Origin: Rhizaria sp. SCN 62-66
Lineage: Eukaryota
Reading direction: 5' to 3'
Assembly: GCA_001724265.1 (NCBI GenBank)
Contig: MEDY01000279.1
Span: 1 to 41,020 of the forward strand
DNA: 41,020 nucleotides
Part shown: positions 4,459 to 40,252 of the stretch, piece after piece
Layout: every line of letters begins with the position of its first letter
How positions within the stretch are numbered: position 1 is the stretch's first letter
Notes under the pieces: model-generated
Told to the model about the DNA's origin: nothing
The model's input: only the letters and a program-made list of their open reading frames with translations
Databases searched by the model: none
Translations under genes and position numbers: made by a program

Positions 4459-7400
4459 TTACTGGCGCTTGGCACTCCTCTTAACCTTGGCACGGCCGGT
4501 CCGGCGCGCGCCCGCGGCTGCCGCAGCGTCGCCGGAGCCGTCGCTGGTCTGGCTCTTCTTCTCACCGTCGGGGCTGTGTCCGCTGCGGGGCGCGTCTGTG
4601 CCGATGACGGACATGGACACGCCCATGGCCGTGGCGTCGCGATCCATCGCGAAGGTGTCGCTGCTGCCGACCACGGTCGACGCCGCGAAGGTCGGCGCGG
4701 GGACGAGCCCCGAGTCGGTGCTGGCGAGCGAGTCGCCGCCGTCACTCGCGAACGACGTCGTGTAGCCGTAGTCGGGCGACCCGCCGGGGTAGCCGGGCTT
4801 GGTCGCCACGGTGCCCGCAGTGGTCGCGGCGTGCTCGACGACGGGGATGGTCTGGAACGGGGTGCCCTCGTCTGAGTTGTCGTTGCCCGCACTCGCGCCA
4901 GTGAAAGCGAGCGCACGCGGCTTCAGCGCGCTGGGCTCGTCGTTGTAGCCGCTGTTGTTGCCGTTGACTGCGGAGTGGAACCGCACAGGCACCGCGGCCG
5001 CGGCAGGGGCGGCGGCGACGGGGGCGGCGGCGACCGCGGGGGCCTCGGTCTCCTCGTCCTCGTACTCGTCCTCCTCCTGCTCGTAGCCGTTGTTGTACTG
5101 CTGGCGCTGCGCGGCGTCGTGGCGCGCCTGCGCCTCGGCCAGCATCTGCTGCTCGGCGTAGGCCGCGGCGGCAACGACGTCGTGGTCCGCCTGCATCTGC
5201 CGTAGGTGGCCCTCGAGTGCCGACGTCGATGTCACCACGGAGCGGTGCTGCGCCTGCGCGGGCATCAGCGGGCGCGTCACGAACCCGCCGGACGTGGCGC
5301 CGTGCATCAGCACTTGCTGTTGCTGGCGGATCGCCGCAGACGACGCCGGCGCGGGGCCAGCGGCTGCTGCGGGCGCGCGGCCTGGCGCAGGCGTGGCTAT
5401 GAACGCGGGAGTCGCGGGGACGGACTGCGTGGGCGCGGCCTTGGCCGCAGCCGCGAGGTTGGAGCTGGAGGAAGAGGGCACCCCCTCGACGCCGCCGCTG
5501 CTGGTGGCGTCGGTGGGGCGCACCTGCAGCATCGGGCGCGGCATCGCGCGCGACGTGGCGCCCGCGCTGAAGGACATGCGCTGGTACGCGGGCACCATGC
5601 CCAGCGACGGCGGCGCGCCGTTCTGCTTGCTGGCGATCGCGGCGGCGCGGGCCGCGGCCAGCTCAGCTCGCGTGGACGCAGCAGCCGCCTCGCGCGCCGC
5701 GGCGTCCTGCTGGCGCTGTCGCTCCTCGGCGGCCGCGCGCTCGGCGTTGATAGCATCCATCAAGTCGCGGCCGGCGTCGCTGCCGTTGACCGACGGGCTG
5801 GGCGGGCCCGCGCCCGCGCCGCCGCCGGCGCGCAGCATCACAGACAGACGGGGGCGGTACACCTCGTCCTCGCCGTTTTCGACGTACTCGCCGTTCTCGT
5901 CCGCGCCGTAGTTGTTGTGGGCGTTGCGCGAGGGCGAGTTGCCGAGACCGAGCACTGCGGAGGCGCGCTTGGCCTTGGCTGTGCCGTTCTTGCGAGCGCG
6001 ACGGCGCTCAGCGCCCGTGGTGAAGTCGAGCTGCGACATCTCCAGGTCGCCGCCGCGCTGGGCACGCAGCTCCGCGGCGCGCTTCTGGCGGTCGGCGTCT
6101 CTCCGCTCTCTCTCGGCCTCGGCGCCATAGTCGTCGGCCTCGGTGGCGTTGTCGAGCCCCAGGTCGCGGGCACGCGCGTAGGCGAGACGCTTTTGCTCGC
6201 TCTTCATCTCCGCCTGGCGCTTTCTCCGCAGCGCGTCTAGCTCGTCGGGCGTGAGGCCCTCGCCTCCGTTGCGCTTGGCCTCAGCCTCCTCGGCGTCGAG
6301 CTCGGCCTGGAGAATGTCGTCCTCGAGCTTGCGCAGCGTCGAGAGCTCGGAATCCGCCTTGAGGGCCTCGGCCGCGTCAGACTTAAAAATGGCAGAAAGC
6401 AGGAAGATGGCGATGGCAGTCTTGGCGAGAATCGACACCATGCGGAGCAGGAAGATGTCGAGGGCGTTGGACAGCGCGGAGGACTCGATCCACTCGACCG
6501 TGGCGTTGGCGCGGAAGAGGTCGAACTGCATGCCGTAGACGAGGATCATCATGATGCAAAAAAACACCCACATGGTGAGGAAGATGAATCCAACAAGGCG
6601 AAGACCACGCGGGAAGCGTTCGAAGAGCGGACGCGTCTCATACCACTTCATCAGGTGCTCAAACGACACGTCAACCTGGGTGCGGAGACGCAGCTTGAGC
6701 TTCTGCTCGTTGCGCGGGTCCATGCGGCCCGACGTCTTCTGGCCGTAGTGGTTGTAGCGCCACGCCGCGAGACGCGCGATCTCGTTGAGCTGGATGCGCT
6801 CGACGGCGGGCGTGCACTTGGAGAACCACTTGAGCTGGTGCTCAGGCTTGCCAACATACGTGTCAGTGTTACCTTCGCCGGTGTAGCGCAGGAAGCAGAG
6901 GTGCTCAGCGTACGTGTACAGCATGGTCTTAACGCGCGCCTTCTGCGTCAGCGCGAACACGAGGGAAAGAATGAAGCCAATCGGCAGCATGATGGCGGCC
7001 GAGATGACCGAGATCGAGATAAACGCAAGCTGCGCCTGATCGTTACCGTAGAACATGGCGTTGACGAAGTAGCCAGATAGGAAGAGCACGCACGCAGTGA
7101 GCGCGCGACCCGCGGACGAGTACGAGTGCGCGTCCTCACGCAGGAAGATACTCACCCACAAGTGGTCATGACGCAGTGAGTAGATGGCCTTCGTCTTGAG
7201 CTTCTGGAACGCGGTCATCTCGACTTCGATCTCAGGGTTTTCCGTCGCGTCGGTGCGCTCTGCAGAGACAATCCATTGGCGGTGGAGTTTTCTCATCGCC
7301 TCCTTGTCCTTAATACGGTCGATTCTAACGGCAACGACGAAGAAGATGGCGCAGATGACGAACCACACGCAGATTGCGATCAGCGGCACGGGGTGCTTGC

Positions 7401-10400
7401 GGACGTTCTCGGGCGTGAGGTTGAGGAAATCACGGGCACTGATCGTGTTGAACGAGGGCAGGAAGTCCGTCATCTGGATCTTGGACCGGAACATCGTCAG
7501 GTGCGTGCAGCTGCACACAGTGAAGGTCGTGTTGAACGACACACGCTTGCAGCCATCGGTGCTCCACGCGCCACCGGTACCCGTGGCTCTCGGACTCCAG
7601 TACTCGCACACCGGCGAGAAGGAGCCGTCAATAGCACTGGGATTGGGGATCGTGATGATGAAGGCCGAGTTCGTCTGCGTGGTGTCGAACTTCTGCGTCT
7701 GCGGGATCGGCACAGTCAAGCTGTCGCCGACCGTGACCAGGAGCGGCGTGGAGCCGCTGCGCGCTTGCATCGACAGCGATACAAACGACGACGAGGAGGT
7801 GCCATTGAGGTACTCACCATCGGGCACCGAAGCCAGCGCCATGAGATCCGTGCTCTCGATGACCGAGAGCACCATGTTGACGCTGCCCGTGTTCGCAGTC
7901 GTCATTGAGCCTGCGATGTTGTTCGGCAAGGTCACACGCGCACCGCCGGAGGGCGCCGTCACGATCGAGGGCGCGGCGCCAGCATTGGTTGCGATGTGCT
8001 GCGTGACGAGCTGAATGCCACCCTGCGACAGCGAGTCGGCGGCCTCGCCGGAGACGGAGGGGCCCATTGTGTTAAAGGCCAGCACGGCCAACTGCGCAGG
8101 GATCAGGTTGATCAGCGCAGCGGCCTCGGCGCGCATGGCCGCGATGAGGGCCTGGTTGTCCGCCGACTCGGGGTTCGAAGATACGTCCTTAGTGACTACG
8201 CCACTGTGGGTGCGCGACGACAGCGTCAGGAACGACGATGATGCCGAGCCCTGGGCAGCCGCAGCGGCAGCCGCAGCCTCAGCCTCATCCTGCGCGACAG
8301 CGGCAGCGGCGATCTTGTCGCCCTTGCGCGCGCGAATGCGGTTCATGAGCGCGGCACGCTTCTTGCCGATGAGCACGCCGTCCTCGTTCACGTCCTCAGG
8401 GCCCGCGCCGATAGCGGCGTAGGGGTCCAGCGGCAGCAGGCGCGGGTCGTCGCGGAACCCGTTGGCGCGCGCGGCAGCGACCTCAGCCGCCTCGCCGGGG
8501 TCGGCGACTGGGAGGGGCACGCCGAGCACAGTCATGATGGTCTTGCCGACTGCGTTGGCGACAGAGTGCAGCACGCCAGTGCCGGCGCTTGGGCCCGCGC
8601 CTGTGCTCGTCGTCAGCGTGCTGGACGCGCGGCCCGCGGTCGTGTTGCGGTTGATGAGCGCAGCCTCAGAGTCGAACGAGCGCATGATGTTCTTCAGAGT
8701 CATCAGCATCGCGTTGGCCGACGGCGCGCGCAGCGTGGGCGTGCCAGACACCATCGTGAGGCCAGCGGCCTGGCGCATCTGCATCTTGAGCGCGTACGAA
8801 CGCACATCCGCGGTCAGTTCGAGTGGACGCGCGCAAACGCCAGCAACGAGCTGCAGAGTCATTTCGGACTGAGTCGTACTGCCTTCCCAGGTAGGCACGT
8901 TGGGGAACTGGGGCAGCACGGGCGTGCTAATGAGGCTCGTGTCCTCGAGCTCCTGGCGCAGCGCACTGAGCGCGACCTTGCGCATCGTCTGCGAGGTACC
9001 CAGCAACGTCTGCACAGCGGGGTCCTGGATCTGCTCCAGCAGCTGCAGACGCACTGCGGCGTTGCCCTGAACGTCGGCAGCGGTAGCGGTGAGACGAATG
9101 AGAATATTGGCAACGACGACGGTGAAGGAGTCGATACTGACCCTGTAGCTGGCGTCAACAAGACCAGAGTTAAGGTACATGCTGACTGGCAGCAGAGTCT
9201 CGCTGGTACTATCGCGCGCCGCCAGTGTGACGGTCACGGCCACAGACGTTACCGCGTTGTACTTGTCGTAGATAAGTGCAGTGAACGTGACCGTAGCGGG
9301 GAAGTCGAGCGAGACAACGAGGCGCGGCGAGAAGGAGATAGGCGCAATCTCGGCCTGCAGAGTCACCGCATCCAGACCGGTGCCGAAGGTGGTGTCGAAC
9401 ATGAACAGGTAGCGCAGCGGCTGGTCGCCGTCCTCGTCGCTCCATTGCTGGCAGTAGAGCGCGAACGGTACACCGGCGCGCAGCACGTGCGAGGTCGTCG
9501 AGGTGGACTCGGCGCTGCACGCGCCACCACTGGGGGGCTCGTTGATCGTCAACGTGATGGTCGACGACGCGAGCTCGTCAGGCAGCGGCCCGACCGGGTA
9601 GCTCTCAAGCGACAACGTCGTGGGGACGCTCGCCGCGGTGGGGTAGAGTGAGGCGCGGAACGTGTACGTGACACCCGCAGTGAGTCCGTTGGCCGCGAAC
9701 GCGAGCGCATTGTCGAGCAATGTTGCCGTGTGTCGGATCGAGAGATCTGTCATGTCGACATTACGCGTGTCGCAGGTCCAGTACACCACAGGGTCGGGCA
9801 GCGAGTCGTCGTTCTTTGTGACCACCGCGCGCATGCGGGTGATGGTGCCCGCGGGGAGCTTGTCAGAGGCCTGACCCTGAATCAAAACGGTGTAGTCATG
9901 GGTGATATTGACCAGCGTGATACGCGTAGTCGTCGAGGCTGAGCGCATGTTCTTGGTGATCGTGAGCGTGATGTCAATGTCAGAATCAGCAGCAGGAAGA
10001 AGGTCCGAAGCCTCAATCTCTGCTGTCACATCAACCGGCATAATCCAGGCAGGCCAGCACAGCTCGCTGGGAGAATTGACAACGGCGCAGGTCCACGAGT
10101 ACATCAACTCAAGGTCGTCGCCCTCATCCGGGTTGTGATCGCGGTCAAGCGACTGTACACCAGACAGGCTCAACGTCGTCGTGAGCGGGTGCGTGCCAGA
10201 CAGCGCCAGGATGCGCGGCAGCAGCGGGCCAACTTCGCAAACGACGGTGATATCCACATCGGCAAGAATGGCAATGCTTTGCTGTTCCACAGTGACGCGG
10301 AACTGGTACGTGTATCCCGGCTTCAGCGCGTAGGCAGAAATAGTCAACGCATTGTTATCCACGGTAAAGCTAGCATCCGGGGAGGTATCCAGCAACGCCC

Positions 10401-13400
10401 AACTAACAAAGAGGGGCGTGACCACATTCTTGGCTGCCGCGCTCGAGTTGGTCCGAGCGGTGGCATACTGCAGCAATACAGGAATGCGCGTTTGCAGAGA
10501 GGATGAGACATAAAACGTGGGACCACCGGGGACGGAGATGGTCGGCATCGGCATCTCCAGCATCACGACGGTTGTACTCACACTCACCGTGGTATCGTTG
10601 TACCAGGGTTTGACAGTAAGGCGCAAGGTGTAGTTGTACCCCGCGGGGAAGAACGACGCAGGCACGTTGAGCACGGGCATGTACGACGGCGAACTCGTGG
10701 CGCCATAACTCGCTGAGACAACAGTCTGCGCAGTCACCAGCGTGTTAAACGAATTGCGCAGCGTCGTGAGATTCAGCGTCGGCAGAGTGCTCGAGGCAAT
10801 GGCCCACGTATAGTTGAACGCACGGCCACCACCACCGGTGCTGCGGAGCGACGAAACAAGGAAGGCAGCGTCGAGGCCGACCACCGACGGCGTGTCAAGC
10901 AGGGGCACGATGGCAGCGGGCGCGGTGCTCATCGCGACCACGGGCGTCTCTTCTTGGTTGTACATCTCAGCGCGGTCGGCCTCGCCGAGCGTGCGGATGC
11001 GCGCGCCACGAACGGTAATGGTAGTGTTCACGCCTAATGAGAAGTCACGGCCGAGTTTGACACGCAGTGTGCGCGCATTGCGCCACGAGCACGTGGGCGA
11101 CTGTCCGAAGCGGTTGACGGTCGACGTCGGGAAGAAATAGGAGCAAGCGCCGGTGCCACCGGTGGCTGCAGGCTGGTTGGTGTCTTTGTTGAAGATAATT
11201 TGCACCGAGGCCATCGAGTTGGAAAAGCGCGCGACAGTGATCTGCGGGAACGGCGGCTCGCAGATCGCGGGGTCAGTGCAGACCGTGCAAACAGGGCGTG
11301 CCTGCCACCCCGTCGCGGAGCAGCCAAACTGCGCATACGTGAGCTTCGTGTTTTGAATGTAAAAGTGCTGGTTGCATTGCACGCGCGCATAAGAACCAGC
11401 AATCGTGTTGCTGTACGTCACGACGCCGTTGGTGATGTTGGGAGGAACACCGCAGTCGTAAGACGACACGCAAGGGCGCGACGTTGCCGTGCGTTCCTCA
11501 TCCACGGGGAGCCAAATCGCGGACTTCTCATCCGTACCACAGTAGAACTGGATCGGGTTCGTCTGCGACGGGTCGCCGGGGTACGCCGGCAAGGGGTCGA
11601 AGCCCTGTGCACAGCGGCACGTCATTGTCGATTCCTGAATGAACGTCTCGTCCGTCGCCGTGAGCGGAGTATCACCGTACTTGTGCGAGCACGAGTAGGA
11701 CACCCACTGCGGATTATCGCAGCGCGTGGAGCGGCACACCAACGTGTTACTGAAGGTCTCTGTGTCGATACATTCAGCCCATGACGCATCTTCGTTAGCA
11801 ACGTACTGATCGTCGCACTCGACGTAGATAGAAGAACCCTTGTAAACAGTCGTTTCCGTGGGACCCGAGCCCTCACGGATAGCGCGGCCGTTGGCAATCG
11901 TGGGCAGAGTGCACGTGGGCAGCATAGCGCACAACGGGAGCGTGACATTCGTCGACGCAATCCAACCGTTGTCAGTGCACGTGAGATCGTACGTCTGTTG
12001 ACTCTCGATCTTAGCGACATAGGGGTACTCGCAGTAATACATGGCGGTCGTGTTGCGAGAGTACGTGCCGTTGGCGTTAAGTGACGCGGCCTGCTGGTTG
12101 TAAGAGTAACCCACCGAGTCCGACACGTCCGGCTGCAGCGGGTTACACGGCGTCACAGCGCGGCAGAGTGTGCTGTCGAGCACATCAAGATCACCGGTGC
12201 TTGTGTCCAACACTGTGAACACGTTCATCGCGTCGCCGCCGTCGATTCCACTCTTCATCTCCAGCGCGACCGCGTTGGGGTAGAGATTTCCCTTGACGTC
12301 GAGGTGTGAGTCCCCGTCCTCGTTGAGACGCCAGATCATCGTGCCTTCTTCACCGCGCATGCAGTTGAAATAGACAAAAGTCGTCTCCGCACTGCCTGCA
12401 TAGCCGTCAGCGCACGTGCACTCAGCAGTCGACTCGTAGGTCGGCATTGAAATGACCGCGTCATCCAGCCGGTAGGTGCACTGAAAGCCAGCCACCTCGA
12501 TCAGGTCGCAGGACTTCTCCACGCATTCCACGGGAGGCTCGAAGCCCTTGACTGTGCACACGGACGTATCGGTGGACGCGGACGGCTTGTAGTATTCAGC
12601 ACACGTGACACGGATCGTGTCGCCAGTGTAGATAATCTCGAGTCCCGCAGTAGAGGCGGTGGTACCGTACGCGATGTCGGGCAGGTCACACGTCGGCATC
12701 AGCTGGCAGTGCGAGTCGATATTAAACGGACCCGCCGGATCCCAGCCCCAGTTCTGGCACTCGAAGTTCGCCGTGCGCACGTTAGAGTTGATGGGCTCAG
12801 TCGGGTACGCGCAGCCGACCATCGCGGTCGTGCCGACAGGGTACGCACCAGTGCCCGGGCTCGCCGACGCCGTGTACGAGAGCGTTTGATTAAACTCACC
12901 CGACTCGCTGTAGACTTCGAAGTCGAGGCAGGGCACGCGCAGAGCGCAGTCGTTCGCTGCCTGCGACTGCGAGGCTGCTGCCCAGGAGTAGGGCAGCTCG
13001 CCGAGGTCAGAGCAGATATACTGCAGCGGGGACGAGTCGGCAGCGCCGTAGTAGGTGGGCGAGCACGTGCACACGGCGCGGTAGCCGGGGTCGTAGCGCG
13101 TGGTGTTGGCGGCGACAGGCTGGCCGTTGGTGCCCAGATACGAGCACGAGAGCGACTCCTCCGACTTGGGCAGGCACCGGGCCTCGCCGCATGTGACGGT
13201 AGACCACAATCCGTTGGCGGCGCAGGTGGAGGTGCTGATACTGTTGACGGGCAGGTAGCTCGTGTCGCAGGTCACGGTGGCATTGCTGCCGAGTGCGCGG
13301 CCACTGGTGTAGGCCGAGGTGCCGTGGGCCACGACGAGCGAGCCACAGAGCGTGGACACGCACTTGAAGCTGCTGATGTTGTACGTCGAAGAAGCAACCC

Positions 13401-16400
13401 AGGTAAAGACGTTAGTGCTCTGCTGCACGCACGTGAAAGAGAGAGAGTTGGGTGCGTTGCCACTCGGCGACAGTCCAGCATTGCAAGCCGTGGTCGAGAT
13501 CGTACCAGCAGGCAGCAACACCGACACGGGGCTCAGCGTAACACCCGAAGCGTCAGTGTAGACGTAGCCGTAGTTGTCGTCCGTGGGTACGGTTCTCGGG
13601 ATACACGCCGTCTGCGGCTCGCACGACAGCGTCTGGCTCAGCAGGCCCGTCTCGAGACACGTCGCCGTGGCGACGCCGGCGGTGGGCTGGTACTGGGATG
13701 CGCACGTCAGCGTAACCGTCTCGTCGCGGTAGGCCAGCGAGGTCGACGTGACGCCGTTGGTGACAGCAGGCACGCTGCACGAAGGAACGTCCTTGCAGAG
13801 CTGGATGTTGGAGGGCAAAAGTTCGGACCAGTCATTTGCCGAGCACGTCGCGGTCTGCGTCGTGATGGCGCTGTTGATGGGCTCCTGGGGGAACTTGCAC
13901 TTGCGCGTCAGAGCGGTGCCGGATGGGTAGCCGCCAGCGGAATCGACCGACACGGAAATGCCTTGGTACGTGTACACATCATCGTACGCACCTGTAAACG
14001 GAAGGCAGTGCGCGGATTGCGCGTTACAAGTGACGATAGGGTACCACGTGCCGTCTTCCTGGCATGTCGGTTGTTCGTCCGACGAAAGGTTGTAGGTATC
14101 AATGCACGAAAGGAGGACGGTTGAGGTCACTTCCTTGAAAGGGGCGGAGTAGCCGTCGACGATGGCGTAGTCCTGCTCATAGCCAGGGCACTTAGAGGCG
14201 ACGCAATTGAAGGACGTCGGGTCGGTGATGCGCTGATCGGGAGACACCCAAAGAAAGTTCGAGCTGCACGTCGCTGTGAAGTGGTCGGGCAGCAGCACCG
14301 ACGAGGAGGATGTGCCAGTGGGACAAACCACGGACATAGTGGTGCCGACAGGATGCAAGAACGTCGTCGAATTGCTGCTGTACGTCACGGTCGCGCTCGT
14401 GTCAAGTGCGTAACAGTGGGTTTGCGTCACGCACGAGAGGGTGACGTCGAGACCCTTAGAGTCACAGTTCGCGGTTCGAATGGCGTTGGTCTGTTCATAG
14501 CCGATGGGGCAGAAGATGTCGACGGAACCACCATACCAGACCTGAGACGGCACGTAGTCGCCAATGCCGTCGAGCGAGGGCAGAGTGCATTCGCCGCGGT
14601 ACACGCAGAAGTTTTCAACGTCAAACTCGGTGTCCTTCCAGCCGTACTTCTCGCAAGTCGTCGTGCGCGACGGCACCGATGCGTTGGCGGGCTGAAACGG
14701 GTACGAGTCGCATCGACGCGTCACAACAGTGCCAACGGGCAGCACAGCGCCCTCAACGGGGTTGTAAACGGTGCCGTTGTACGTATACACGACGTCAATG
14801 ACGTTCTCGGAGAATTGCTCGCACGACATCGTGGGCTGACAGAAGGCGTCGGCGTTGAACTCCTGCCACTGCCCGACTGAGTTGTTCTCAGACTCGCAGG
14901 TGGTCGTAAACGTCTGGTCATTTGTGATGGGCCACCATTCGTTCGCGGCGTTGCAGGCACACGTCGCCAGAGTCGCCGGTGCGTACAGTCCCTGGCTCGC
15001 CGTAGTAGCGTACGAGCACACCAGCGATTCGAACGTGATTGGCTCGCAGTACGTGCGCACGCACTCATACGTCGGGTCCCAGGCGTGTGTCTCAACCGTG
15101 CACTCATGCTCAGTCTCGATACCGCTGTAGGCCGCATTGCACGTGATAGTCGCGACACCGGTGTCGAACTTGCCCAGCTCGTCGTACGCCACAGTACCCG
15201 TCTCACCAAGCATGATCGATGGACAGTCGGTGGCCTCGCACGCAAAAGAGACGTTGGTGATAAGGGTGTTGGGTGCAACGACTTGCCAGTCATAGTTATC
15301 GACAGCATCCTTAACGCACCTGAGCTGAATCAAATCGGGGTACGACTTGATACCAGAGAGACCTGAAGCACACTCAAGCGTAGTAACTGCGTCAACGGAA
15401 TAAATAGGACCGGTCAGTGGTGCGTTTGTTTCGCCGTCAAGAATCGTGATTGTAAACGACTCATCTGGATCGATAGGGTCACGGCAACCTGACTGAGTGA
15501 CGCAGGCAGGCGCAACCTCGAAAGACCCAGTCCCAGTACACATGACCTTAGAGAGGCCATCACGGGGCTCCTAGCCGTCGCCACAGGTATACGTCAAAAA
15601 GTCGTCCTCGACAACTTCCTGACCAACATTAGGGACAGACGTGACGGCGTAAGCGAGGTCGATCGGCACGATGCACTTCGCGCGCGCGACGCATATAGGT
15701 GTCGTGAACGTGGAGGCACCGTTGAACAAACCAGTCTCAGGATCACACACGGCCTCCGGAGCCGACTGTGCGGTCATTTTTCCAGTCGCAGTGCACACCA
15801 TGCGCACATGAACATTCGGGAAGTACAAAGTGGTCTGATCGTCAATCAAATCCTTTGTAACTTCAGATTGGTCCGTGTCGTCGATGCGGAAGTACGTGAG
15901 TGCGTGCAGGCCGTCGGTGGACGGGTAGCTACCCGTGGTCACGGCGTTACACTGGTGCACAACGCAGGGCTGCGCGGGGAGCGATACATCCCAGCCCGAC
16001 GCCGTGCACTTAGCCACGGAAGGCAGGCCGGTGACGAGGCCTGTGCCGGCCGCGCAGGAGAGTGCGAGTGTGGTGTCGACGAGGTTGTGCGTGGCGTTGG
16101 CAGCATCGTAAGCGACGCCGTTGACAGTGGCGATCACAACTTCGGCCCAGGGGAATGCGTCACAGTTGGTATTCTGACACGGCGTCGGATCGGCCGCGAT
16201 TGTGCCAGCCGTGCAGTAGCTGAAAGTGATGGGCGAAGAGACCTCAGGGTCAAGAACGGCGTTGCCTGTGCACGCGCACTCATAGCCGTGGCCCTCATAG
16301 AAGGTGACGGTCTGACTAGTGATGTCTTGGACAACCTGCGAAATGACGCACACGCCGTTGGTAATCTTGGGCAGCGCGGGGGCTGTGCACGCTGGAATGA

Positions 16401-19400
16401 GAACGCACTCGAATTGGTCTTGAACAGCCATTCCATTCATTTCCACTCCGGTACATTTGAAGACGCCGGTGGTAGAGCTCGCCCGCGGTTCGTACCCCGG
16501 CATACACTTGACATTCAGGGACTCACCGATCTCCATGTGGTAGTCGTTATTCGCGTCGAAGATTACGGTGCCGTTTGAGGTACCTGTGACTTGGAAGTGA
16601 AAGCTCTCGAGGAGCGCGGTCGTCACCGTACAGTAGTCCGAGTTGTCATCACACTCGGCGAGCGGATTCTCCATTAACCCACCAACCCATGCGTACGCTC
16701 CGTCGCAAGTAGCGGTAAAAAAGTCTGGATCTTCCATTTCCATGCGCTCCATCCACGTCGGACACATGAGCTCAACAACGGTGTTCTAGGCGTGGAAGCC
16801 CGCGAATGATGCGTTGGGATTGTACGTGTACAAAGCATCCACGGCGACAGGGAACGCTGCACAGCCGTTGACAACGCAGTTCGGGATGTTCTCCCAGCCG
16901 TCAGCGCCGCAAGTGAGAGTCTGATCACCGTTCGGGTCCGCGGTGACCATGCTGTTAGACACGCACGTGGCCACGCCTGTGGCGCCAACCTCAATGTAGC
17001 GCGCAGTCTCGTGGCTAACATTGTTCCACACGACAGTGAAGAGATCGAGCGCGAGATCGCTGCGACTGCACTTGGTACACTGCAGCTCGTTGCCTGTGAT
17101 CGTGCCGGTGTCGCTGTCGCAGACGAGCGTGCCCGTGTTGTCAACCGGGTACGAGCCCACGGGGCACTCCTGCACGCCGAGCGCGTCAACCGGCCACGGC
17201 GCATCCGAGGCGTTAGGAGGGTACGTAAAAGGAATAGTATCCGTAGTGGCCGTGAAGGCCGGGCACGAATCGGTGGCACAGCCGCCGATGATCTTGCCCT
17301 TCGTCGTGCAGTACACGGACACGTCGCCAGTGCCGCTCTCGTTCGGGTTGAAGGGGACGGAGCCGTCAGCACAAGACAAACCAGAGTAGGTCACACCATG
17401 TTCAAGAATGTTGGCAAACTTAGTGTTCTTGGGGATAGCAGAGTTAGCGGCGAGGTTCAAGCCCGAGGGGTAGCCGTCACGCAAATCACAAAGATATGCG
17501 GCGTCCTGACACTCAGAGAGCGAGAATGCGGGCGTCGTCGACCCAGGCACGGAGTCACCAGCTTTGTACCAGTCCCCGTTGAGACAGACCACTTGGCCAA
17601 CAGAGAGGCCACCGTCGAGGCATGCGACGTTCGACACCTCGCCGTGGTTGCGCGACACGACCATGAGCTCGGAGGCCGCGGCGTCAGCGTTGATGAGACT
17701 CGGCAAGGAGCCCGAGCAGGGCATGTATGCGGGCATGGTGAAGTCGTTGAGAGGCAGTATAAGCGTAACACCACCAACCACGAACGAGATCCAAGGCCGC
17801 ACGACAGAGCCACGACGGAAGGTCATGTCAAAGTCAAAAGTGGTCGAGCTCGAGAACACCGCGGCTGTTTGTTTGACCATGTTGGTAAGATAGAAATCGT
17901 AGGGGCCATTCAGTGTCGCCGTGATCAAAGCGCTGGCAAATGAAGTGGGCAAGTCGTCAGAGTACGAGTCCGACAGCTCAACGGTCATGCCCACCAGCCC
18001 CAACGGATACGAGAACAGCAGCGGGGCCGTAACGATGGGCACACGATACTTCATCGGAGGCAGCCGTGCGAACGAGCGGGACTGGAAGTTATCTTGGAAA
18101 GATTCGAGCACGACGAACGTGTCAAGCGTTGGCGCACGCTTTAGCGGAGGGAGAGTGCATTGAATGGTGAATGTGGACCATGAGTCAGTATGGATTTGAT
18201 TGAACATGGTGGAGCCTGGGACTTCGAAATTTCCACTAACAATGTTCCCGTCTGGAGAACTGAACATGGGATTGAAAGGCATCGAGTTAGAGTCATCGAC
18301 GGCATTCCAACGAGTGTCAAATGATACGTCACATGACACCTCAAAATCTATAATGGCTTCCGGCTCGGAGTTGACCATAAACGTGTCCTTATAGACATCC
18401 GGTAGCGTGATGATGAACGTGAGATCGCCAGATGTGTGATGGAACATCGGAAGCGTGAGAGTGAGTTTGTTCTGGACATAGTCTGAAGATGTGGCCACAT
18501 ACGGACCAGCAACAGGATGTAACATCGCGGTCGTCATCGGCGGCTCCACAGTAACTCCCTGATCCTCCGACTTGCCAATCGGGTAATAGAAACTCTCAGC
18601 AGCGACGAATGCGTCCATGGCGCCGTCGCTGTACTGCATCTGCAAGGCGAACGAGCTTGCATTGGTCGGGTACACGTAGCCGGTTCCGGTGAACTTAATG
18701 ACAAAGGTAAACGCAAACACGTTCTCCAGCTCCTCGAACGGTGCGAAAAGCGCGCCAGCGCATGCGAGAGTGTGCGAGCCTGCATCGTCGAGCCAAGGTC
18801 CGGGGACCTCGACCGTCAGCGGTTCCGTCGAGCCATCCGTATGGTGGAGAAACACCACGGAGTCGGGCGCGTACAGCCCTTGGTACACGAGCTTCATGCC
18901 GCTAAAACCGTTCGTGGCGACGTCGAAGGCAGTCTTGAGATTTGTGCGGAACATGATAGAAATCGCAACCGTGTGCGTCGTGTCGGTGTGCTGGACGTAG
19001 TGCGGCACCAGAGTGACTTCCGGCATCAGTGGCGCTGGCGTGATGTCAATCCCCGTGGGATTGTCGTCGCGTACCAGGGTGTAGGTCGCGGTCTCCATCG
19101 TCGCAGTTGGGCCGTCGATCTCGTTGGGGTTGGGGTACTCGGCCGAGATGCACACAACGTAGAAGAGCTCGTTATGGAGGTCCAACGGCATGGCGTCGAC
19201 GACATACGAGTAGGCCGTGCTCGTCGTCGTTGGCGTGGCGGTGGCTGTATTGTCCTGCGAGACCGCACCGGTGACAGTGCACGTCAGCTGCTGCCCCTCC
19301 GTGTCCTGCGTGAAGGACGACGGGGACGAGACCGTGAGGGGGTACGCAGTGGCGTCGAAAACCTTCGAGTCGAGTACGAGAACGTCGTAGTCAAGGCTTT

Positions 19401-21210
19401 CAATGCGCTGGCGAGCGAACACCGGCTTAGTTAGCAATACTGGATCGGCCGCAGCTGGGTCGTAAGCACGCACCCACGCGGAGTCGGCAGCGAAGCCGGT
19501 CTGGACCGAGAAGGGCAGGGCGTCCGAAGACGCGGGCACGAACGTCATCGTAAAAGCGGCCACCACTGTGGGCGGCGAGGTCGCGAAAGAGCATGCGACG
19601 ACGACGGGCAGGGAGTTGTACAGCGGAATGTCAAAATAAAGACCGCCTACGTCGTAAGTAACCGGGGTTTGGTTGTTAGGGCTCAGCGGAGACTGGTACT
19701 GGCAGGAAAAGCCATAGAGACCACCACCCGAAATATCCTGGTCCACAAACGCGTACACGCGTTCCACTATGCCGTCACCCTGCAGAACGAACTGCAGTCC
19801 CTCGTTCAAAGAGCCCATATCGCGCACAAACAGGTCACTGATGTACCGAATGCCGGTGGGCATAACGGCCACGGGGACCCCAGACATCATCACATAATCA
19901 TTGAATGGCGATGCATATCCCTTGTTGGTCTCGATATAGAGCGGCGTTGTGTGCATAACTGTACCACGGTCGTCAGCGGACACTTGGCTCGTGAAAGAGC
20001 AGTCAGCGATTATGATGGCGCGCGGCGTCGACGACACAAAGCGGCCTGCGGGGGCGTTAGGATAGCCCGCACGCGCGCCGGGCACGGTGAAGACGCAGCC
20101 CTCTGTATTCTGAAAAAAGACCGAGAACGTGGGCTGCTCCACTGCATCTGGCTCAACAGGGCTATAATCGTTGCTGAAAGCGAAAAAGTAACGGGCGCGG
20201 GTCAGCCCACCGATGTTGTAGAGGTAGAGCTCGTAGCCGCCCGTCTGGTCGAAGGCGATGATGGGGTTCACCATCGGCGCGACGACAAGCGCGGTCGCGA
20301 TCGCCGGGTGGCCCTGGAGAATAGGATAGAACAGAGTTGCAGTGACGGTGTGAGATGAGCAAGCGGGTTTTGCGGGAGTCAAGGTGGCGGTGAAACAAAG
20401 GCGACTAAACGAAACAACAGATAAAGCGGTGCTGTGTCCAACTCCTGTTCATGACCAGGAAGTATATGCTGACATACCGTGAGAGCCGCGACAAAGATGC
20501 TGGGCGGGAGGAAGGCGATGTCCATCGATAACAGCACGCCTTCAGGAAAGTACTCCATCCAGTTTGAAATACGGGTAAGAATCATCGTCACAGTCCACGT
20601 CGACGGGTCGTTGCACTCTTGCTCGCTCGACACAGCAAAGAGGTCTGCCATGGCTACCTAGGTACGGAGCGAACCCTGGCCAGAGAGAGTCAACTCCTGC
20701 GTGGAGTTGATTGCAGTGCAGCGGGTGAAGGTGAGAGCCACATCGACATCGAAAATCGTACTACCGACAACGCCACCAACGTTGACCACGAGGTCGCCTG
20801 TTGCGGTGGGAACATCAGCCCATGAGGCCGGGTAGGGGTAGGCAGCGGAGAAGCCTTTGAGCTTGATTTTGAAGCTACCAACTGAGTCGCTCGACTCATA
20901 GACCAAGCTGCTGGTCTCTGTGCCCATCAATACAGGCGACAGTGATACCTGAGAGGAGCCCGCAACTGTGGAAGCAATTGTGCATGGTTATATACATGAC
21001 AAACCAACAGCACGGGGGTGAATGAACAGTCGATGGAGGGAAGATGTGAACACGAGGGCAGTTTAAAGTGAAGCAGCTCACGGCGGAAGATCTCGTGGAA
21101 GATAATAAACGCATAGCGAGTCGTAAGAATGTCAGGTAGATGAGAAGAGACGTACCAAAAGCTACACATAGCGCTAGCACCGTGACAAAGAGTCTGTGGA
21201 GACCCAACAT
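4459..21210 (-). CDS. Giant polycystin-1/REJ-like adhesion receptor (~5465 aa): signal peptide, ~1000-aa beta-rich region, long sushi/CCP array, REJ, GAIN/GPS, 5 TM, low-complexity tail. Exons 21210-21156, 20965-20478, 20313-4459. Contains 3 in-frame TAGs.
   Basis: The spliced N-terminus MLGLHRLFVTVLALCVAFVAGSSQ is a signal peptide. ORFs 20658-20930 and 20379-20651 share a frame, as do 16786-20382, 15571-16767 and 4459-15543; each pair is separated only by a single TAG. CCP-like C..GY..C..W..C repeats, REJ motif NEPPSGGAC...CQQWSDED..PLRYLF, GPS CEYW...WSTDGC...CSCTHLTMF, PKD1-type HLWVSIF. Confidence 0.85.
6383..7395 (-). other. Five-helix transmembrane region resembling the PKD1 N-terminal TM domain, without PLAT
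   Basis: Hydrophobic segments PLIAICVWFVICAIFFVVAV, ALTACVLFLSGYFVNAMFY, FISISVISAAIMLPIGFILSLVF, LVGFIFLTMWVFFCIMMILVYG and ALDIFLLRMVSILAKTAIAIFLLSAIF. Confidence 0.75.
7489..7612 (-). other. GPS motif with intact HL|T autoproteolysis site
   Basis: VCEYWSP...WSTDGCKRV....TVCSCTHLTMF matches the GPS consensus. Confidence 0.9.
9230..10910 (-). other. REJ (PKD/REJ-like) module; boundaries approximate
   Basis: Ig-like repeats (FNYTW, LKPGYTYQFRVTV, SLDRD...YSWTC, LTAGVTYTF) followed by INEPPSGGAC...WSDED..PLRYLF...YDKYNA. Confidence 0.75.
11300..17700 (-). repeat. Array of roughly 30 divergent sushi/CCP-like Cys-rich modules; count and boundaries approximate
   Basis: Recurring ~60-70 aa units such as CGVPPNITNGVVTYSNTIAGSYARVQCNQHF...CSATGWQARPVC. 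The array continues across the TAGs at 15571 and 16786. Confidence 0.8.
20314..20477 (-). other. Intron 2 of the giant receptor CDS (164 nt, phase 0)
   Basis: ACG|GTATGT ... TCCTATTCTCCAG|GGC. Splicing resolves the frame difference between ORFs 20379-20651 and 16786-20382. Confidence 0.85.
20966..21155 (-). other. Intron 1 of the giant receptor CDS (190 nt, phase 1)
   Basis: TTTG|GTACGT ... CTTCCACAG|TTGCG joins the signal-peptide exon in frame to exon 2. Confidence 0.8.
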
Positions 21211-21237
21211 GGCACCGATTGTGTGTCAACAAGGCTT

Positions 21238-21481
21238 CTGCAAAGGGGGGTTGAGGCCAATCAAACTAGGATGCACACTGGGGTCAAGACAGACAATAGG
21301 AAATGTGTGAGACAAAAGGTACACCAGAGGCAACAGATGTTTCATAACAGGACGCAAAGCAAGATCAACAAACGACGGCAAAGGCACCATAATTGCTCTA
21401 AGAAGGAGCCTCTCCTCTTCTTCAACCAGCGTGCTTTGCTTGACCAGGACCGAAAAAAGAGCAAGATTGAAAAGATCGTAC
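21238..21481 (-). other. Probable 5'-UTR intron of the giant receptor gene (244 nt)
   Basis: CTG|GTACGA donor, pyrimidine-rich body, and CCCCCCTTTGCAG acceptor 27 nt before the ATG. Confidence 0.55.
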
Positions 21482-21786
21482 CAGTAGTGTAATAATAATG
21501 TGTATACATAGCACGTTTATTATATCCACACTTTAACAGTATGGAGAGATAATAAACACAATTGTGTAATTTATTCAACAACGGATGACCCTAGATTGAA
21601 CGAGGAACCTACTTGAACATCTCATTAAGACTCGTTGTTCAAACGGCTTCTGTCCATTTGGTGATCTCTACACGAGAGAGATGTTCAGGAAATCAAGTGG
21701 CGCAGGACACTCATGCGTTAGCTCTCTCACTGTGCCGTAAATCGCTCACATACATCTTTCTTGCGAGTTCGTGACAAGAGCTCGAC

Positions 21787-23694
21787 TCATTTCTTCGTCC
21801 TCCGCGTCTGCTCCTTGTCCAGAATCGCGTCAAACATGCCCGCTTTTCGCTCCAGAGCGAGGATCTCGCGGTCCAAATCGTCCAGAACGACCACATTTGA
21901 CGGGATCATCGTGTCCGTAAGTCGCGCTGCAGACTCGACCTTGCCGTTGCCACCACTGCCACTGCCGCCGCCGCCCGCGCTCTTGGTGTTCCTGCCCTTG
22001 GCGCCGGCGCCTGTCGCGCTCTTGCTACCGCCGCTGCCGCTGAGGCCCTTGTTCGCGCCGACGGGGGCCAATCGCGCGGGCTGCTGCTGCTGTTGCTTTT
22101 GAGGTGGCAAACGCCGGGCGCCCATCGTGTTGCTTGTGCCGCCACCCGCCGCACCCTGCGCCGCGCCGCCCGCGGCCGCGGCCGCGCCGGCGTCGGCGTC
22201 GGGCTTGAGCAGCGCACGTAGCGACCGGGAGGGTGAGAGCGACCGCGTGCTGGCGCTGTGCACCAGGTAAGGGTTGTCGTCGCGGGAGAGCTCGTTGTAC
22301 CCGAAGCCGGGCTCCACCACGCGTGCGAAGTGCGGGTCCGGGTACGGGTGCTGCGGCGGCCACAAAATGAAGCACAACATAGAGTGAACGAATATGAGAT
22401 GGCGATGCGGACGTCGAAGACAAGTCAACATAAGGAAAAAAAAGAAGAAATTGTTCGCAAAAAACGCTGCATGAACAATACAATTAATCGTACCTGATAA
22501 GTCCCACTCGACAGCAAAGCCTGCTGCGAGGATGACTGTCCCAGAGGCGGCAACGACGCCGGCACAGGTCCCTGTTTCTGCTGCTGTTGGAGCGGCGCGG
22601 TGCCATTAAAAACGTTTCCGTTCGCCGCGCTATTAAATTGCTGTTGTTGTTGCTGCTGTTGCTGTTGCTGCTGTTGGGACAGCTGACCGCTCATGAGCTC
22701 GGCCGTGACCTGGGCCTTGAACGCGCGCCGCACAGCGGGATCTGCGAAGCGCGAAGCGGCGACCGAAGGCGCGGGCGCGAAGGCCGCGGCGCGCGGGTGG
22801 TGCAGCATCTTGCTCGCCGCGCTCGCGCTTGCGGCCGCACGGGAGTACGACTCGCGGTCGCTCAGCGCACCCACACCGACCGTGGATGACCCGCCGGGGA
22901 CGCCGCCCGCGCCACCGGAGGGCCGCCGCGGGGAGAGCGCGTCGGAGTCACCCGCGCCGCTGCTTCCGCCGCCGCCGGAGAGGTTGTGGCGCGTGTATAC
23001 CGTCTGCATGCGCGCCTGCGACAGCGTCACGCCGTGCCCACCGACGCTGCCATTGCCGCGGGCGCTGCTGCCGTCGGGGGACGCCGAGGACGTCGTGTGC
23101 AAGAGTCTGCCGTCGAGGCTCGGCGGCGGGCGCGGGCGCGAGGCACTCGCAGGGCTGGCAACACTGCCTGTGCCGCTGCTGTTGTTGCCAAACGACTGCG
23201 ACAGGGTCATGGCCGCGTAGGCCTGCGCGTGTGACTGCGAGTCTCCGGGCGCGCGCTGCACCGCGCGCGACGGGTGCGAGTGGTGCGGCGTAAAGCGCCC
23301 GGGCGACAGAGCCAGCGGCGGGTGGTGCGCCGGCAGCGCGCTCGAGTGGTACTTGTCGCCGGCAGCACCACTGGCACCGCCCGAACCACCGGCCGAGTGC
23401 GCGGGGTCGGCGTCGCGGTAGCTGTGCTCGTCGCCGCGCGCGTCGCCGTGGGCAGCAGAGTGCTCGCGCAGCGTCTGCAGGTGTTGGAGAGTCCGCACGC
23501 CGTCAGTGGCCTGGTGCCAGGCGAGCTTGGGCTGGTATGCGTGCTCGCCGACCGTCACGCTGGCCTCGTGCGACGCCGCCGCCGCCACAACGTAGGGCGC
23601 GGCCGCCTGGGACAGAGCCTCGCGAGACGACACGGGAGGACGCGCGGCGCCGCCCCCGTCTTCGTCACCGCCACCGTCACCATACGACTGTTGC

Positions 23695-23726
<32 letters not shown>

Positions 23727-24347
23727 CTGTTGCTGCTGCATTGCTTGCTGCTGGGGCACGCGGGCGATGTGGCTGGGTGGGGGGATGAGCGAGCCGACGA
23801 CGTCAAACTTGATGCGGATGCCGGGGCGAACCGCGGGCTCGCCCTGGTCGTCAACGCCGTAGTCCTCCGCAGACGCAGTGTAAGGGTCGCTCGAGTTGAT
23901 ATTGCTCGATGACTCGTTGCCGTTGGAGGCGTGAGAGTTGTTGTTGCTTCTAGAGTTCCTAACTGTGTTGTTGTCGTTGTTTCTCGAAGCAGAACGCGCT
24001 GTAGCTTCATCGTCGGCAGGCAGGGACAAGTCATTGTTGCTGCTAGGGTCCCCCTTGGTTTGCTTCTGCTGGTCAGGGACAGACGTCACGGAGCCGTCCT
24101 GATGCAGCATCGTTGAGTCCTCTTCTTCAACAGTAGAAAAGCCGAGGTGGTCCGTGCCGGCCGCGCGCTGCTGCTTGCCGGCGCCGGTGTTGGCCACCGA
24201 CGAGGCGAGCGACGGGGCCGAACGGGTGGGAAGGTCCTCTTCGTCCGAGTCGGTGTCACCGGGGGCGGGGAACCACGAGAAGAGGCGCTCCTGCTCGTAT
24301 GGAACGTCAATGCGCTTTGCCATACCCTCGGGCCAGTCGTTAGACAT
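21787..24347 (-). CDS. Hypothetical, largely disordered Gln/Ser/Ala-rich protein (805 aa). Exons 24347-22494 and 22350-21787.
   Basis: ORFs 22425-24356 and 21787-22431 join in frame through a CAG|GTACGA...CCGCAG|CAC intron. Ends at TGA. Short C-terminal helical segment (LDDLDREILALERK). Confidence 0.75.
22351..22493 (-). other. Intron (143 nt, phase 0)
   Basis: Canonical GTACGA donor, T-rich body and CAG acceptor; restores the frame. Confidence 0.8.
23688..23752 (-). repeat. Mixed CAG/CAA polyglutamine tract
   Basis: (ctg/ttg)n on the + strand; encodes QQQAMQ17. Confidence 0.9.
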
Positions 24348-24793
24348 CGTGGACAAGAAGGGGATAAGCGGCTAAGGCGGGGGCGCGCGGCCAGAGCAGT
24401 TCTTGAGTGCTAGAACGAGAGGACTCACGAATAAAGAGTCTGCCTGTTGTGAAACGAAGAACTGGAAGGTTTAAAGATAGAAAACGGCGTGTTAGTGTTA
24501 TTTGGGTTAGGTTCATTCACAAAATCCCAGATAACGGATTTCCGATATTGATACGATCCCAGCAAATCCGGCAGTCTTGACCTCATCGCCACAGCTGTTG
24601 TAACGGTCGCCGAGCTCAACCGCAGCGCCCACCGACATAATGTCATTTCAAGTCTATAGATAGAGCATTCTAAGCATAACAGGTCGTAACTTGAAACTAT
24701 AGTTTGTATTTCAATTCAATAAACAGTTGGGTCAATATAATACTTTCATGGTTCTTGTTTACACAGCCAATGCGGTGGTTTTGTGTTAGCGGT

Positions 24794-26514
24794 TCAGATG
24801 TTAGGCAGCAATGTGTAGAGCTTCTTCTGCTTGCCCGCCTCATCAACCCGCGTCGTCGACGCCGTGGTCTTGCTCATCAGCGCCTTGATGATCGTGCGTA
24901 CCTCGTCGCTGGCATTCTTGGGGTTGAACGGGTGCAGCAGCTCGCGCAGCAGGTCCGCACCGACTATCTCGGCCGACGGGTACTTTGCGGCGAACACCGC
25001 CTTGACAGACGCCACCGTCACCGCGCGCCCATTCACGTGCACCACCCCACCCACCACAACGGCCTCCGCGCCCGCGCCGCCCGCGGGGGCCGCCGAGCCG
25101 CCCGTAGCAGTGAGTGAGAGCCGCAGCGGGGCGTCTGCGCCGCCGCCGGCCGCGTCGGCGGCCCTGGAGCTGGGGCGCGCGCGCTTGGCCGTGTGGGTGA
25201 TCGCGTTCTCACTGTTGGCGCTCGCGGCGGCGATCGCGGCCGCAAGGGCGTTGCCGCCAGCGGACGCACTCGAGCGCGCGATGCCCATGCCCGCGTACGC
25301 CGCGGGCGCGGCACTGGTGGTCGCGGCGGCAGGGGCGGCGGCGGCGGCGGCGGCGGCGGCGGCCGCGTCGTCGTCGTCCTCGTCGTCCTCGTCGTCCTCG
25401 TCGTCCTCGGCCGCGGCCGCAGCGGCAGCCGCGGCCTCGGTGTCGGCGTCGGCGGTGTCGAGCGCTGCGAAGCCTTCTTCGCGGAGCGCCAGGAGCCGCG
25501 CAAGCTCGGCCTTGTCGCTTGTCTTGCCGAGTAGCGATGACTTGAAGTTGGCCTCCCCCTAAGCACGCATGAGGACAAGATGTAGACGTAAACGGGAAGG
25601 ATTATTACATGTACGAGTGAAAAATTACGTTTGAACAAGATTAGCTATTGAGAAAATTCATGATATACTTATTCCATATCATTTTCAAAAACTCATAGGA
25701 TCAGAGCCACATTAAACACATGACTTGATCAAGGATTACATGTGCGCGCATTTCTCATTTCGCGGCGTACCTGGTCATCAAAGGTCTCGAAGTCGTCGGC
25801 GTTCTCCTCATCCGCAGCCTCGTCGTCGTCAGCCTCGCGCGCGTACTCAAGCTCCTCCGCGAGCTGCCGCGGCTTCCGCGCCCCGAAGCCCTTCTTGGCC
25901 CCCGCCTTCTTACTATCGCCCGCGGGCGCGCCGCCATCGGTGCCGTCGGCCGCAGCGTTGCGGCGGCGCGTGAAGGACATGTCGAGCAGCGACACGCGCT
26001 CTGTGTTTGCGGCCTCCTCCTCGGCCTTGAGGCGCACCTGCTCCAGCCGCTTGTCGTTCTGCCGCGCGGCCTCGGTCTCGCGGAAGCGCTCCGCCTCGGC
26101 CACGGTCGCAAAGCGGTCCTGCGCGGCCACGCGCGTAAGCGAAAGGAACTGGGGCGGCGTCGCGTAGTAGCTGTTGGTGCGCGCGTCGTACGAAAAGAGC
26201 CAGTAGTGGCCGAAGTCGGGCTTCTCGAGCATGCCGTTGTAGCGCGTCCCGGTGCCCCTGTCCGTGAGCTCCCACGCGCGTGAGCCCACGCCGGTGGTCT
26301 CCAGCCGCGCGTTGGCGGCCACCGCGGCGGCCGCGGCAGCGCGGCGCGTGATGGCGTCGGGCGCGCGCGTGAAGGACGCGAGCCCCGCTGGGGGCTGCAG
26401 CGTCAGCTGCGCCGAGAGGTCGCGGGCGTTGATAACCTTGGCGAGCAGCGGCGTGCCGGGAGGCAGCGGCCCGTTCACGGGCGCGTTGCAGTAGACGGGG
26501 ATGCGGATGCTCAT
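24794..26514 (-). CDS. GTF2F1: Transcription initiation factor IIF large subunit (RAP74/Tfg1-like, ~502 aa). Exons 26514-25771 and 25558-24794.
   Basis: The N-domain WELTD..GTRYNGMLE....YWLF......YYATP......RFATVAEAE resembles the RAP74 dimerisation domain (G.EG..Y.IF...A.P...LT.EEAE). It is followed by an acidic middle (LEY......ETFDDQ) and a winged-helix-like C-terminus (VTVASVKAVF...DLLRELL). The start codon is inferred. Confidence 0.75.
25559..25770 (-). other. Intron (212 nt, phase 0)
   Basis: CAG|GTACGC ... GTGCTTAG|GGG, AT-rich; joins ORF 25729-26667 to the frame of ORF 24794-25288. Confidence 0.85.
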
Positions 26515-28537: not shown

Positions 28538-29147
28538 TCGCTATCGCATCAAACGTTACATCCGTAACAGTTGGGCAACTTGTTACAAGAGTTGCAGCAA
28601 CACTTCATGAAAGGAGCTCTCAGTGGATGAAGTTTACTGTAATAGCACGCATAATTGAACCGCGTGGCTCATTGAAATGATGAGACAAACCTCATTGGTT
28701 TGGTGCTTTAATGGTACTGTGAGTGTGGCTCGAGGCTTGCAATGATGGTGCATACTGAAGATTGGTTTTTAAGACTGGTTTTATATAATTAAATCGATAG
28801 TTACATAGCTCAAATATAAATTTTGTCGTATATTTCCGATATAGGTATGATGGTACATAATTATTTTGTAATAATACAAATGATGCACATGCTTTCTAAG
28901 TTAAAACTCGGTTTTCACAAGCTCCGACAGCGTACCCGAAAACGGTTCTGGTTCGGCCACCAGTGAGCGAAACGGACAGACAAAACATGCCGTGGGTCGC
29001 TTGCGATTGATCGTCAAATACGTTTTTAGCTGTTCTTCAAAATAATATGCTTGATTTTACGTGCCATACTTCTTTTTCCAACTCGGTCTTTGCGACTATA
29101 GCCCACACAACCCTTCGTTTAGGAGCCACTTCTGTCGAGGCAGAATC

Positions 29148-30862: not shown

Positions 30863-30911
<49 letters not shown>

Positions 30912-40221: not shown

Positions 40222-40252
<31 letters not shown>

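Follow-up and report, generated by a model that had tools for sequence, protein, structure and literature searches.

Three in-frame TAG codons in a giant receptor gene of a GC-rich wastewater eukaryote, and the possibility that UAG is decoded as sense

The DNA analysed here, called the window throughout, is the whole stretch of 41,020 nucleotides (nt) of contig MEDY01000279.1 (assembly GCA_001724265.1, Rhizaria sp. SCN 62-66). Our subject is a giant gene on its minus strand that encodes a predicted membrane receptor and carries three TAG codons in frame. These codons are referred to below by their place in the spliced gene (codons 121, 1357 and 1762; Table 1), and the question is whether UAG is read as an amino acid in the source organism or whether the TAGs are ordinary nonsense mutations. 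The minus-strand frame that runs from 20448 to 4459 comprises 5329 codons and is interrupted by two TAGs and by zero TAA or TGA; standard stops split it into open reading frames (ORFs) at 16786-20448, 15571-16785 and 4459-15570. The original prediction, made from the sequence, had placed in-frame TAGs at these two sites, and both are present on the minus strand; each of the 13 peptide strings looked up from it was found.

The predicted protein is composed, in order, of a signal peptide, an N-terminal region, a CCP/Sushi-like array, a REJ domain, a GPS motif, transmembrane segments and a low-complexity tail. The signal peptide and the hydrophobic segments downstream of GPS, which are putative transmembrane segments, were called by eye only. 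The array scored 44.9 and 49.7 bits against the PF00084 cut-off of 20.7, and on 13000-17265 the Pfam Sushi family was matched in 5 stretches (E 4.9e-13). When each TAG-bearing module was searched alone it matched 0 Pfam families at E<=10, and the two modules are tied to the Sushi array only via internal similarity. The N-terminal region of about 1000 residues matched no Pfam family, and the Pfam scan found no PLAT domain in the gene. The nearest Atlas clusters of the REJ/GPS part are eukaryotic REJ/GPS proteins. With a REJ domain, a GPS motif, putative membrane segments after it and a Sushi/CCP array, the protein resembles polycystin-1, PKDREJ and adhesion G-protein-coupled receptors; it differs from polycystin-1-like receptors in lacking a PLAT match, in the family-less N-terminal region and in having one relative only among 1.84 billion representatives.

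Table 1. Features of the receptor gene and other introns of the window (asterisks in peptides mark TAG; a slash marks the exon-intron boundary; CDS, coding sequence; HMM, hidden Markov model).
Feature	Position	Strand	Remarks
Giant receptor gene	4459..21210	-	3 exons, 5465 codons and a TAA stop; spliced CDS a multiple of 3, open except for 3 TAGs
Exon 1	21156..21210	-	start codon and signal peptide MLGLHRLFVTVLALCVAF; alignable with the same region of orthologue L001
Intron 1	20966..21155	-	190 nt, GTACGT...CACAG; type of 5' splice site matches two other introns of the window
Exon 2	20478..20965	-	carries the third in-frame TAG; in register with the orthologue
Intron 2	20314..20477	-	164 nt, GTATGT...TCCAG; brings exon 2 and the 15.9-kb exon 3 back in frame
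Exon 3	4459..20313	-	15855 nt; TAA at 4459-4461
TAG, third site	20658..20660	-	exon 2, codon 121 of the spliced gene, LRT*VAM
TAG, FHA*NTV	16786..16788	-	codon 1357 of the gene, P0001 residue 1221
TAG, GDG*EPR	15571..15573	-	codon 1762 of the gene, P0001 residue 1626; strain X4 has TCG (Ser) here
Cys-rich module, class C..F...YTY...P-x-GT....C	16648..16863	-	holds TAG 16786-88; phmmer and HMM self-search
CCP-like module	15499..15678	-	holds TAG 15571-73; phmmer and HMM self-search
CCP/Sushi-like Cys-rich module array	11299..17265 (approximate limits)	-	Pfam Sushi (PF00084), E 1.6e-11
REJ domain	9175..9570	-	Pfam PF02010, E 1.4e-10, 40.8 bits against a cut-off of 25
GPS motif (…CSCTHLTMF)	7489..7614	-	Pfam PF01825, E 1.5e-10, 41.8 bits against a cut-off of 22.5; hydrophobic segments next
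Intron	25559-25770		212 nt, GT-AG, CAG/GTACG 5' splice site; joins ORFs 25732-26721 and 24797-25558
Intron	22351-22493		143 nt, GT-AG, CAG/GTACG 5' splice site; joins ORFs 22494-24371 and 21787-22350

Relatives of the gene are scarce. An exhaustive HMMER search of the 1.84 billion representatives returned one true relative, P0006, which has 32% identity and is colinear from the signal peptide on; a weak HMMER match of 247 amino acids, P0007, was not used. The search for homologous proteins outside HMMER returned only the window's own pieces, scans of metagenome and genome contigs with peptides of the window gave no match, and a metagenome contig scan with P0006 recovered only the 15-kb contig of that relative (L001). 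The organism appears to be very poorly sampled in public protein sets. The anatomy of the receptor gene is nevertheless whole, with a signal peptide, two frame-restoring GT-AG introns, a TAA stop and an orthologue that is colinear through the three TAG sites. Contigs of run X5, a polyA RNA library, fall on parts of the gene, and bins without X5 cover were given no weight. One of these contigs spans 20731-21170 and is colinear with the DNA over predicted intron 1, as would be expected of unspliced RNA or of DNA carry-over; the splicing of intron 1 is therefore argued from homology and reading frame only. The contig of the orthologue has a peculiarity of its own, one switch of reading frame at about 6770-7150, where the ORFs 60-7148 and 6770-15146 overlap, which may be a frameshift or an assembly error.

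The reality of the TAGs was examined by comparing the Logan contigs of four sequencing runs, of low depth (4-8x), with positions 3500-22500 of the window. The stretch occurs in data sets from bioreactors, wastewater and activated sludge; runs X6-X10 contain only small shares of it and were not used for any conclusion on habitat or strain. The contig tables of runs X2 and X3 were the same; the two may be a single data set deposited under two entries and were counted once. X2 belongs to the same study as the possible source of the window, and X4 to another study, sampled in 2025, and to a different strain. X2 agrees with the window at codon 1762, with the same letter at 15572 at a depth of 4.1; across its contig 19865-21054, which includes the TAG of codon 121, there are 0 differences. 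The X4 contig 15153-17076 has 21 differences, all of them listed and none at 16786-88, and the TAG of codon 1357 is common to both strains. At 15572 the X4 strain has T>G on the plus strand, which turns the TAG of codon 1762 into TCG (Ser), and around codon 121 the listed X4 contigs end at 20639 and 20663, on either side of the TAG. Every listed site has one allele per run (other_depth equals all_depth), and a hidden intact allele was not seen. The occurrence of the TAGs in separate runs and the single haplotype of each sample make an assembly error or a hidden intact haplotype unlikely. The in-frame TAGs are genuine and are not assembly errors.

The same observations bear on the proposal that the TAGs stem from a sequencing or assembly artefact or lie within short in-frame introns. 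The low depth and the fact that the organism does have introns could be cited in its favour, but TAGs were seen again in separate runs and in another strain, and the proposal is largely refuted and scarcely credible. Short introns spanning the TAGs were rejected, as the orthologue and the sister repeats align without gaps and with one residue per TAG, and the introns seen are 143-212 nt long.

The strain comparison also provides a view of the selection that acts on the gene. Codon counts between strains rest on the 40 of the 96 differences between X4 and the window that are visible, a limit to be set beside the objections gathered further below. Among the listed differences, 34 codons of the CDS differ, of which 20 are synonymous, 13 are non-synonymous and one is the change of TAG to TCG. 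The neutral synonymous fraction for the receptor ORF is 0.25-0.32. Against this background the 20/33 synonymous codons represent an excess (P from 3e-4 with p0 = 0.30 to 1e-2 with p0 = 0.40), and the excess is found again past codon 2000, downstream of all TAGs, where 12 of 16 are synonymous (P 3e-4 to 5e-3). Between the TAGs of codons 1357 and 1762 the proportion was 6/11, which is not significant. The indels of X4 are both noncoding (7 nt at 3705 and 2 nt at 21674; the chance of both falling outside the CDS is about 0.01), and there are 0 frameshifts or indels within the 16.4 kb of CDS.

These numbers can be compared with those of neutral decay. About 2.4-2.7% of random substitutions in the receptor ORF are nonsense; three nonsense hits acquired by neutral decay imply some 110-125 substitutions together with 3-10 frameshifts, at assumed indel-to-substitution ratios of 0.03-0.1, and no frameshift was observed. 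A decaying pseudogene would be expected to carry frameshifts, stops of several types and neutral substitutions, whereas the receptor gene has no frameshifts, no in-frame TAA or TGA and an excess of synonymous change. The gene appears to be kept under purifying selection and to be otherwise intact, as judged from the strain differences.

The divergence of X4 from the window is not uniform. In most of the gene it amounts to about 0.3%, but in 15153-18557 it reaches about 1.1%, 3-4 times as much. In the module that holds the TAG at 15571-73 (codons 1596-1651), 7 non-synonymous differences, including the change of TAG to TCG, were counted against 5 synonymous ones. Diversifying selection, relaxed constraint and conversion between repeats are possible causes of the raised divergence and of this non-synonymous cluster.

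The rest of the window offers a second line of evidence. About seven gene ends can be read, 4 with TAA, 3 with TGA and 0 with TAG, one of the gene models (27486-28106) being uncertain, and neither TAA nor TGA occurs in frame among the 11,367 codons counted. UAG thus does not end genes in the window, a small sample. The introns seen have GTAYGT 5' splice sites, are sparse and are biased to the 5' ends of genes. A TAG at 25559-25561 was considered as a further in-frame codon and rejected, as it forms the 3' splice site of an intron.

We favour the reading that UAG is decoded as an amino acid in the source organism while UAA and UGA terminate, and we give it an even chance of being right. It is supported by the reality of the TAGs, the synonymous excess, the absence of indels and frameshifts in 16.4 kb of CDS and the absence of TAG from the roughly seven gene ends; UAG-only sense codes that keep UAA as stop, described below, provide precedent. 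The three TAGs would then be genuine codons inside a gene kept under selection, and a GC-rich, intron-poor wastewater eukaryote would decode UAG while UAA and UGA stay stops. Decoding could be carried out by a tRNA with anticodon CUA, or by very efficient suppression combined with weak recognition of UAG by eRF1. That ribosomes read through the TAGs, and that this reaches across the genome, is what we infer. The original prediction had likewise taken UAG as sense and UAA as stop, which remains a reasonable reading at about even odds, though the amino acid it favoured has weaker backing than it had stated.

The principal competitor retains the standard code and explains the TAGs as recent nonsense null alleles in a large, fast-evolving receptor gene that is being lost or is dispensable. 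We consider this serious rival possible, on the unlikely side. It is at odds with the 12/16 synonymous codons downstream of all TAGs, with 0 frameshifts where three nonsense hits lead one to expect 3-10, with X4 indels that lie outside the CDS, with a TAG at codon 1357 common to two strains from different studies and years, with the single haplotype of each sample, and with gene ends none of which is TAG.

Null alleles would nonetheless account for several features of the data, and these, together with the partial view of the strain differences, weigh against the decoding of UAG. All three TAGs are confined to one gene of 5465 codons, and there are 0 in the 5956 other codons of the window; the chance of such a concentration is about 0.11 if TAGs are spread evenly over codons and 0.43 if they track Tyr. 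The TAG of codon 1762 is polymorphic between strains, and the TCG allele may represent the older intact state. The module region around two of the TAGs (15153-17076) has 8 synonymous and 10 non-synonymous differences, which is near neutral, and belongs to the more divergent part of the gene. Random nonsense hits in this ORF, which is rich in G+C at third codon positions, would be TAG in 60-65% of cases, and the chance that three of three are TAG is about 0.24. The absence of TAG among seven gene ends has P of about 0.2 under a standard code if TAG is taken to make up about 20% of stops. The orthologue contains 0 in-frame TAGs in about 5000 codons, has TAC, one step from TAG, opposite codon 1762, and also shows a frame break. 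The residues that face the TAGs are inconsistent and unrelated (Gly, Val and Tyr in the orthologue, Ser in the X4 allele); over the three sites available, a small number, homologues offer no single residue opposite UAG. No tRNA gene was found by a tRNA scan of the 41-kb window. Finally, recombination could have placed a young null allele on older, selected diversity.

If UAG is decoded, the identity of its amino acid should be visible in repeats and relatives. Repeat HMMs were iterated on the receptor protein itself and their emissions read at the TAG columns. At codon 1762, Tyr is present in 4 of 4 included sister modules (emission of Tyr 0.39, of Ser 0.041), and in the orthologue this position is a TAC Tyr codon that belongs to a conserved YEPRDG[IL]S motif, in agreement with the Tyr that had been predicted for this site. 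At codon 1357 the 7 included sister modules read V, V, V, P, S, A and R, so that Tyr is found in 0 of 7 (emission 0.018, with Ser at 0.096), and the orthologue has GTC Val. The Tyr consensus originally claimed for this second site is thus not recovered; the sisters with Y, Q and L on which it was built belong to another module class. For codon 121 no internal paralogue of the exon-2 domain was found, hence no repeat test applies, and the orthologue, whose alignment is of moderate quality here, carries GGC Gly. The preference for Tyr put forward at the outset therefore holds at codon 1762 only, and not at codons 1357 and 121. The HMM of internal repeats that had been proposed as a check gave no clear winner when both sites were combined, with shares of 0.24 for V, 0.15 for Y, 0.12 for A, 0.09 for S, 0.06 for L and 0.02 for Q.

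Codon content provides an additional argument. The receptor gene holds 200 of the 266 Tyr codons counted, and the probability that three of three TAGs fall in this gene is 0.43 if they follow Tyr codons, 0.06 for Gln, 0.11 for Leu and 0.10 for Ser. The location of all TAGs in a Tyr-rich gene consequently favours Tyr 4-7 fold over Gln, Leu or Ser. We infer that, if UAG is decoded, Tyr is the best candidate among residues whose tRNA is one anticodon change from CUA. It would be the best single candidate overall, holding about half of the probability given to decoding, with Ser, Leu and Gln sharing in what is left. The Tyr column is however also predicted by a nonsense mutation of TAC to TAG, and so the column does not discriminate between reassignment and a null allele.

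A new nuclear code in which UAG is read as Tyr, by a Tyr tRNA with anticodon CUA and with UAA and UGA as stops, would be one case of the decoding of UAG, and taken by itself it is doubtful. The sister modules and the orthologue at codon 1762, the codon content of the receptor gene, and the use of TAA to end 4 genes and never in frame are consistent with it, and amber suppressor tRNAs that insert Tyr are well known from yeast and E. coli. It has to contend with the complete lack of Tyr among the sisters of codon 1357, where the orthologue has Val, with the Gly of the orthologue at codon 121, with a joint HMM share for Tyr of 0.15, with the X4 allele, which is Ser at the very site that calls for Tyr, and with the identical signal that a TAC>TAG nonsense mutation yields.

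That same X4 allele invites the assignment of UAG to Ser, as in the green alga Scotinosphaera, in which case the strain difference between TAG and TCG would be synonymous. SerRS ignores the anticodon; TCG stands exactly where the window has the TAG of codon 1762, Ser occurs among the sister residues of codon 1357, and the stops of the window are TAA and TGA only, as in that alga. Yet Ser has a low emission at codon 1762, where paralogues and orthologue have Tyr, the distribution of Ser codons gives the probability of 0.10 noted above, there is no evidence that the organism is a green alga, and the single allele difference favours Ser about two-fold only (an estimate from the 8 synonymous and 10 non-synonymous differences). 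We regard this assignment as improbable.

The apparent selection on the gene despite its TAGs, and the restriction of the TAGs to one gene, could in principle also be explained by gene-specific rescue under the standard code, either by editing of UAG in the mRNA or by programmed readthrough at the three codons. Adenosine-to-inosine editing that yields UGG is known from fungal sexual-stage transcripts. The listed differences of the X5 RNA are all common with the X4 DNA, and no editing was seen in the stretches that X5 was shown to cover, which lie away from the TAGs. The TAGs are followed by GAG, AAC and GTA (TAG-GAG, TAG-AAC and TAG-GTA), and none of the readthrough contexts known to us lies 3' of them. 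Moreover, three leaky stops in series would leave very little full-length protein. Such rescue is very improbable.

The known codes provide a frame for these findings. In the Mesodinium code (NCBI table 29) both UAA and UAG mean Tyr. The likeness resides in Tyr as a candidate meaning of UAG in the window; the difference is that UAA is sense there, whereas in the window TAA ends 4 genes and occurs 0 times in frame in 11,367 codons. Codes in which UAG is Leu and UAA is kept as stop are listed in PMC11687900 for the uncultured rhizarian exLh and for three metagenome-assembled genomes of TARA phyllopharyngean ciliates, and codes with UAG as Gln and UAA kept as stop for Iotanema spirale, Hartmannula sinica, Trochilia petrani and Protocruzia tuzeti. 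Furthermore, one ciliate is reported in PMC10553269 to have UAG as Glu with UAA as Lys. The window shares with the UAG-only codes for Leu or Gln an in-frame UAG in an otherwise intact gene, a UAA stop and the absence of genes ending in UAG. In those organisms, according to PMC11687900, 78-91% of genes have UAG at conserved Leu or Gln positions, tRNA(CUA) is found in two genomes, and the ciliates among them have 27-54% GC. In contrast, the 3 UAGs of the window sit in one gene, with none among the 5956 other codons and with inconsistent residues opposite them, and the window is 63% GC with introns of 143-212 nt. The source organism is a candidate member of the class of UAG-reassigned nuclear codes.

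A further precedent had been missed by the original prediction. In Scotinosphaera sp. (Ulvophyceae), TAG is reported in PMC8271138 to encode Ser and to occupy conserved positions at which Ser is otherwise written TCC/TCG, with TAA and TGA as the stops. The likeness extends to TAG as sense with TAA and TGA as stops, and to a TAG that alternates with TCG between strains in the window; the difference is that the paralogues and the orthologue of the window have Tyr, and not Ser, at this site. The remark that a nuclear code with UAG alone as Tyr is not a known one agrees with full-text searches of the literature on UAG, tyrosine and reassignment and with the Discussion of PMC11687900, in which we found none; neither these searches nor one on UAG and activated sludge gave such a code or an account of the source organism. 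An undescribed code in which UAG is Tyr, read by a tRNA-Tyr(CUA), used sparsely (about 3 per 11,000 codons), at an early stage of stop-codon capture and still polymorphic for TCG, is a tentative idea that we judge unlikely.

The remaining genes of the window contribute little to the argument. The G+C content of the window rises to 75% at its right end, where a single Ala-rich ORF of 2091 codons and 75% G+C (34743-41018) has a TAA stop and runs off the window end; Pfam gave a single weak match, to VPS9, below cut-off (E 0.015, 16.1 bits against 27). The products of the genes 1219-3567, 29055-34433 and 21787-24371 are long and of low complexity, with stretches of poly-Gln (CAG) and poly-Ala, and the ORFs 1219-3567, 29055-34433 and 22425-24371 matched no Pfam family at E<=0.01. 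A label of 'TFIIF-alpha-like' for the gene 24797-26721 was dropped for want of Pfam support. There were 0 Rfam matches in the 41-kb window. A hint of ciliate affinity, given by 9 members of Ciliophora in one REJ Atlas cluster, was rejected, as the GC content, intron size and TAA stops are untypical of ciliates.

To our knowledge, UAG and UAA nearly always change meaning together, and cases in which UAG alone has turned sense inform the co-evolution of release-factor specificity and suppressor tRNAs. Public DNA and polyA-RNA runs from several studies contain the organism, which makes the question directly testable. If the TAGs are null alleles, they would tell of the ordinary loss of a giant surface-receptor gene. 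If UAG is decoded, the source organism would provide a case outside ciliates, in a GC-rich genome and with very low usage of UAG, and it would capture the early stage that is debated by the 'codon capture' and 'ambiguous intermediate' models. Should the residue be Tyr, a new codon assignment would be added.

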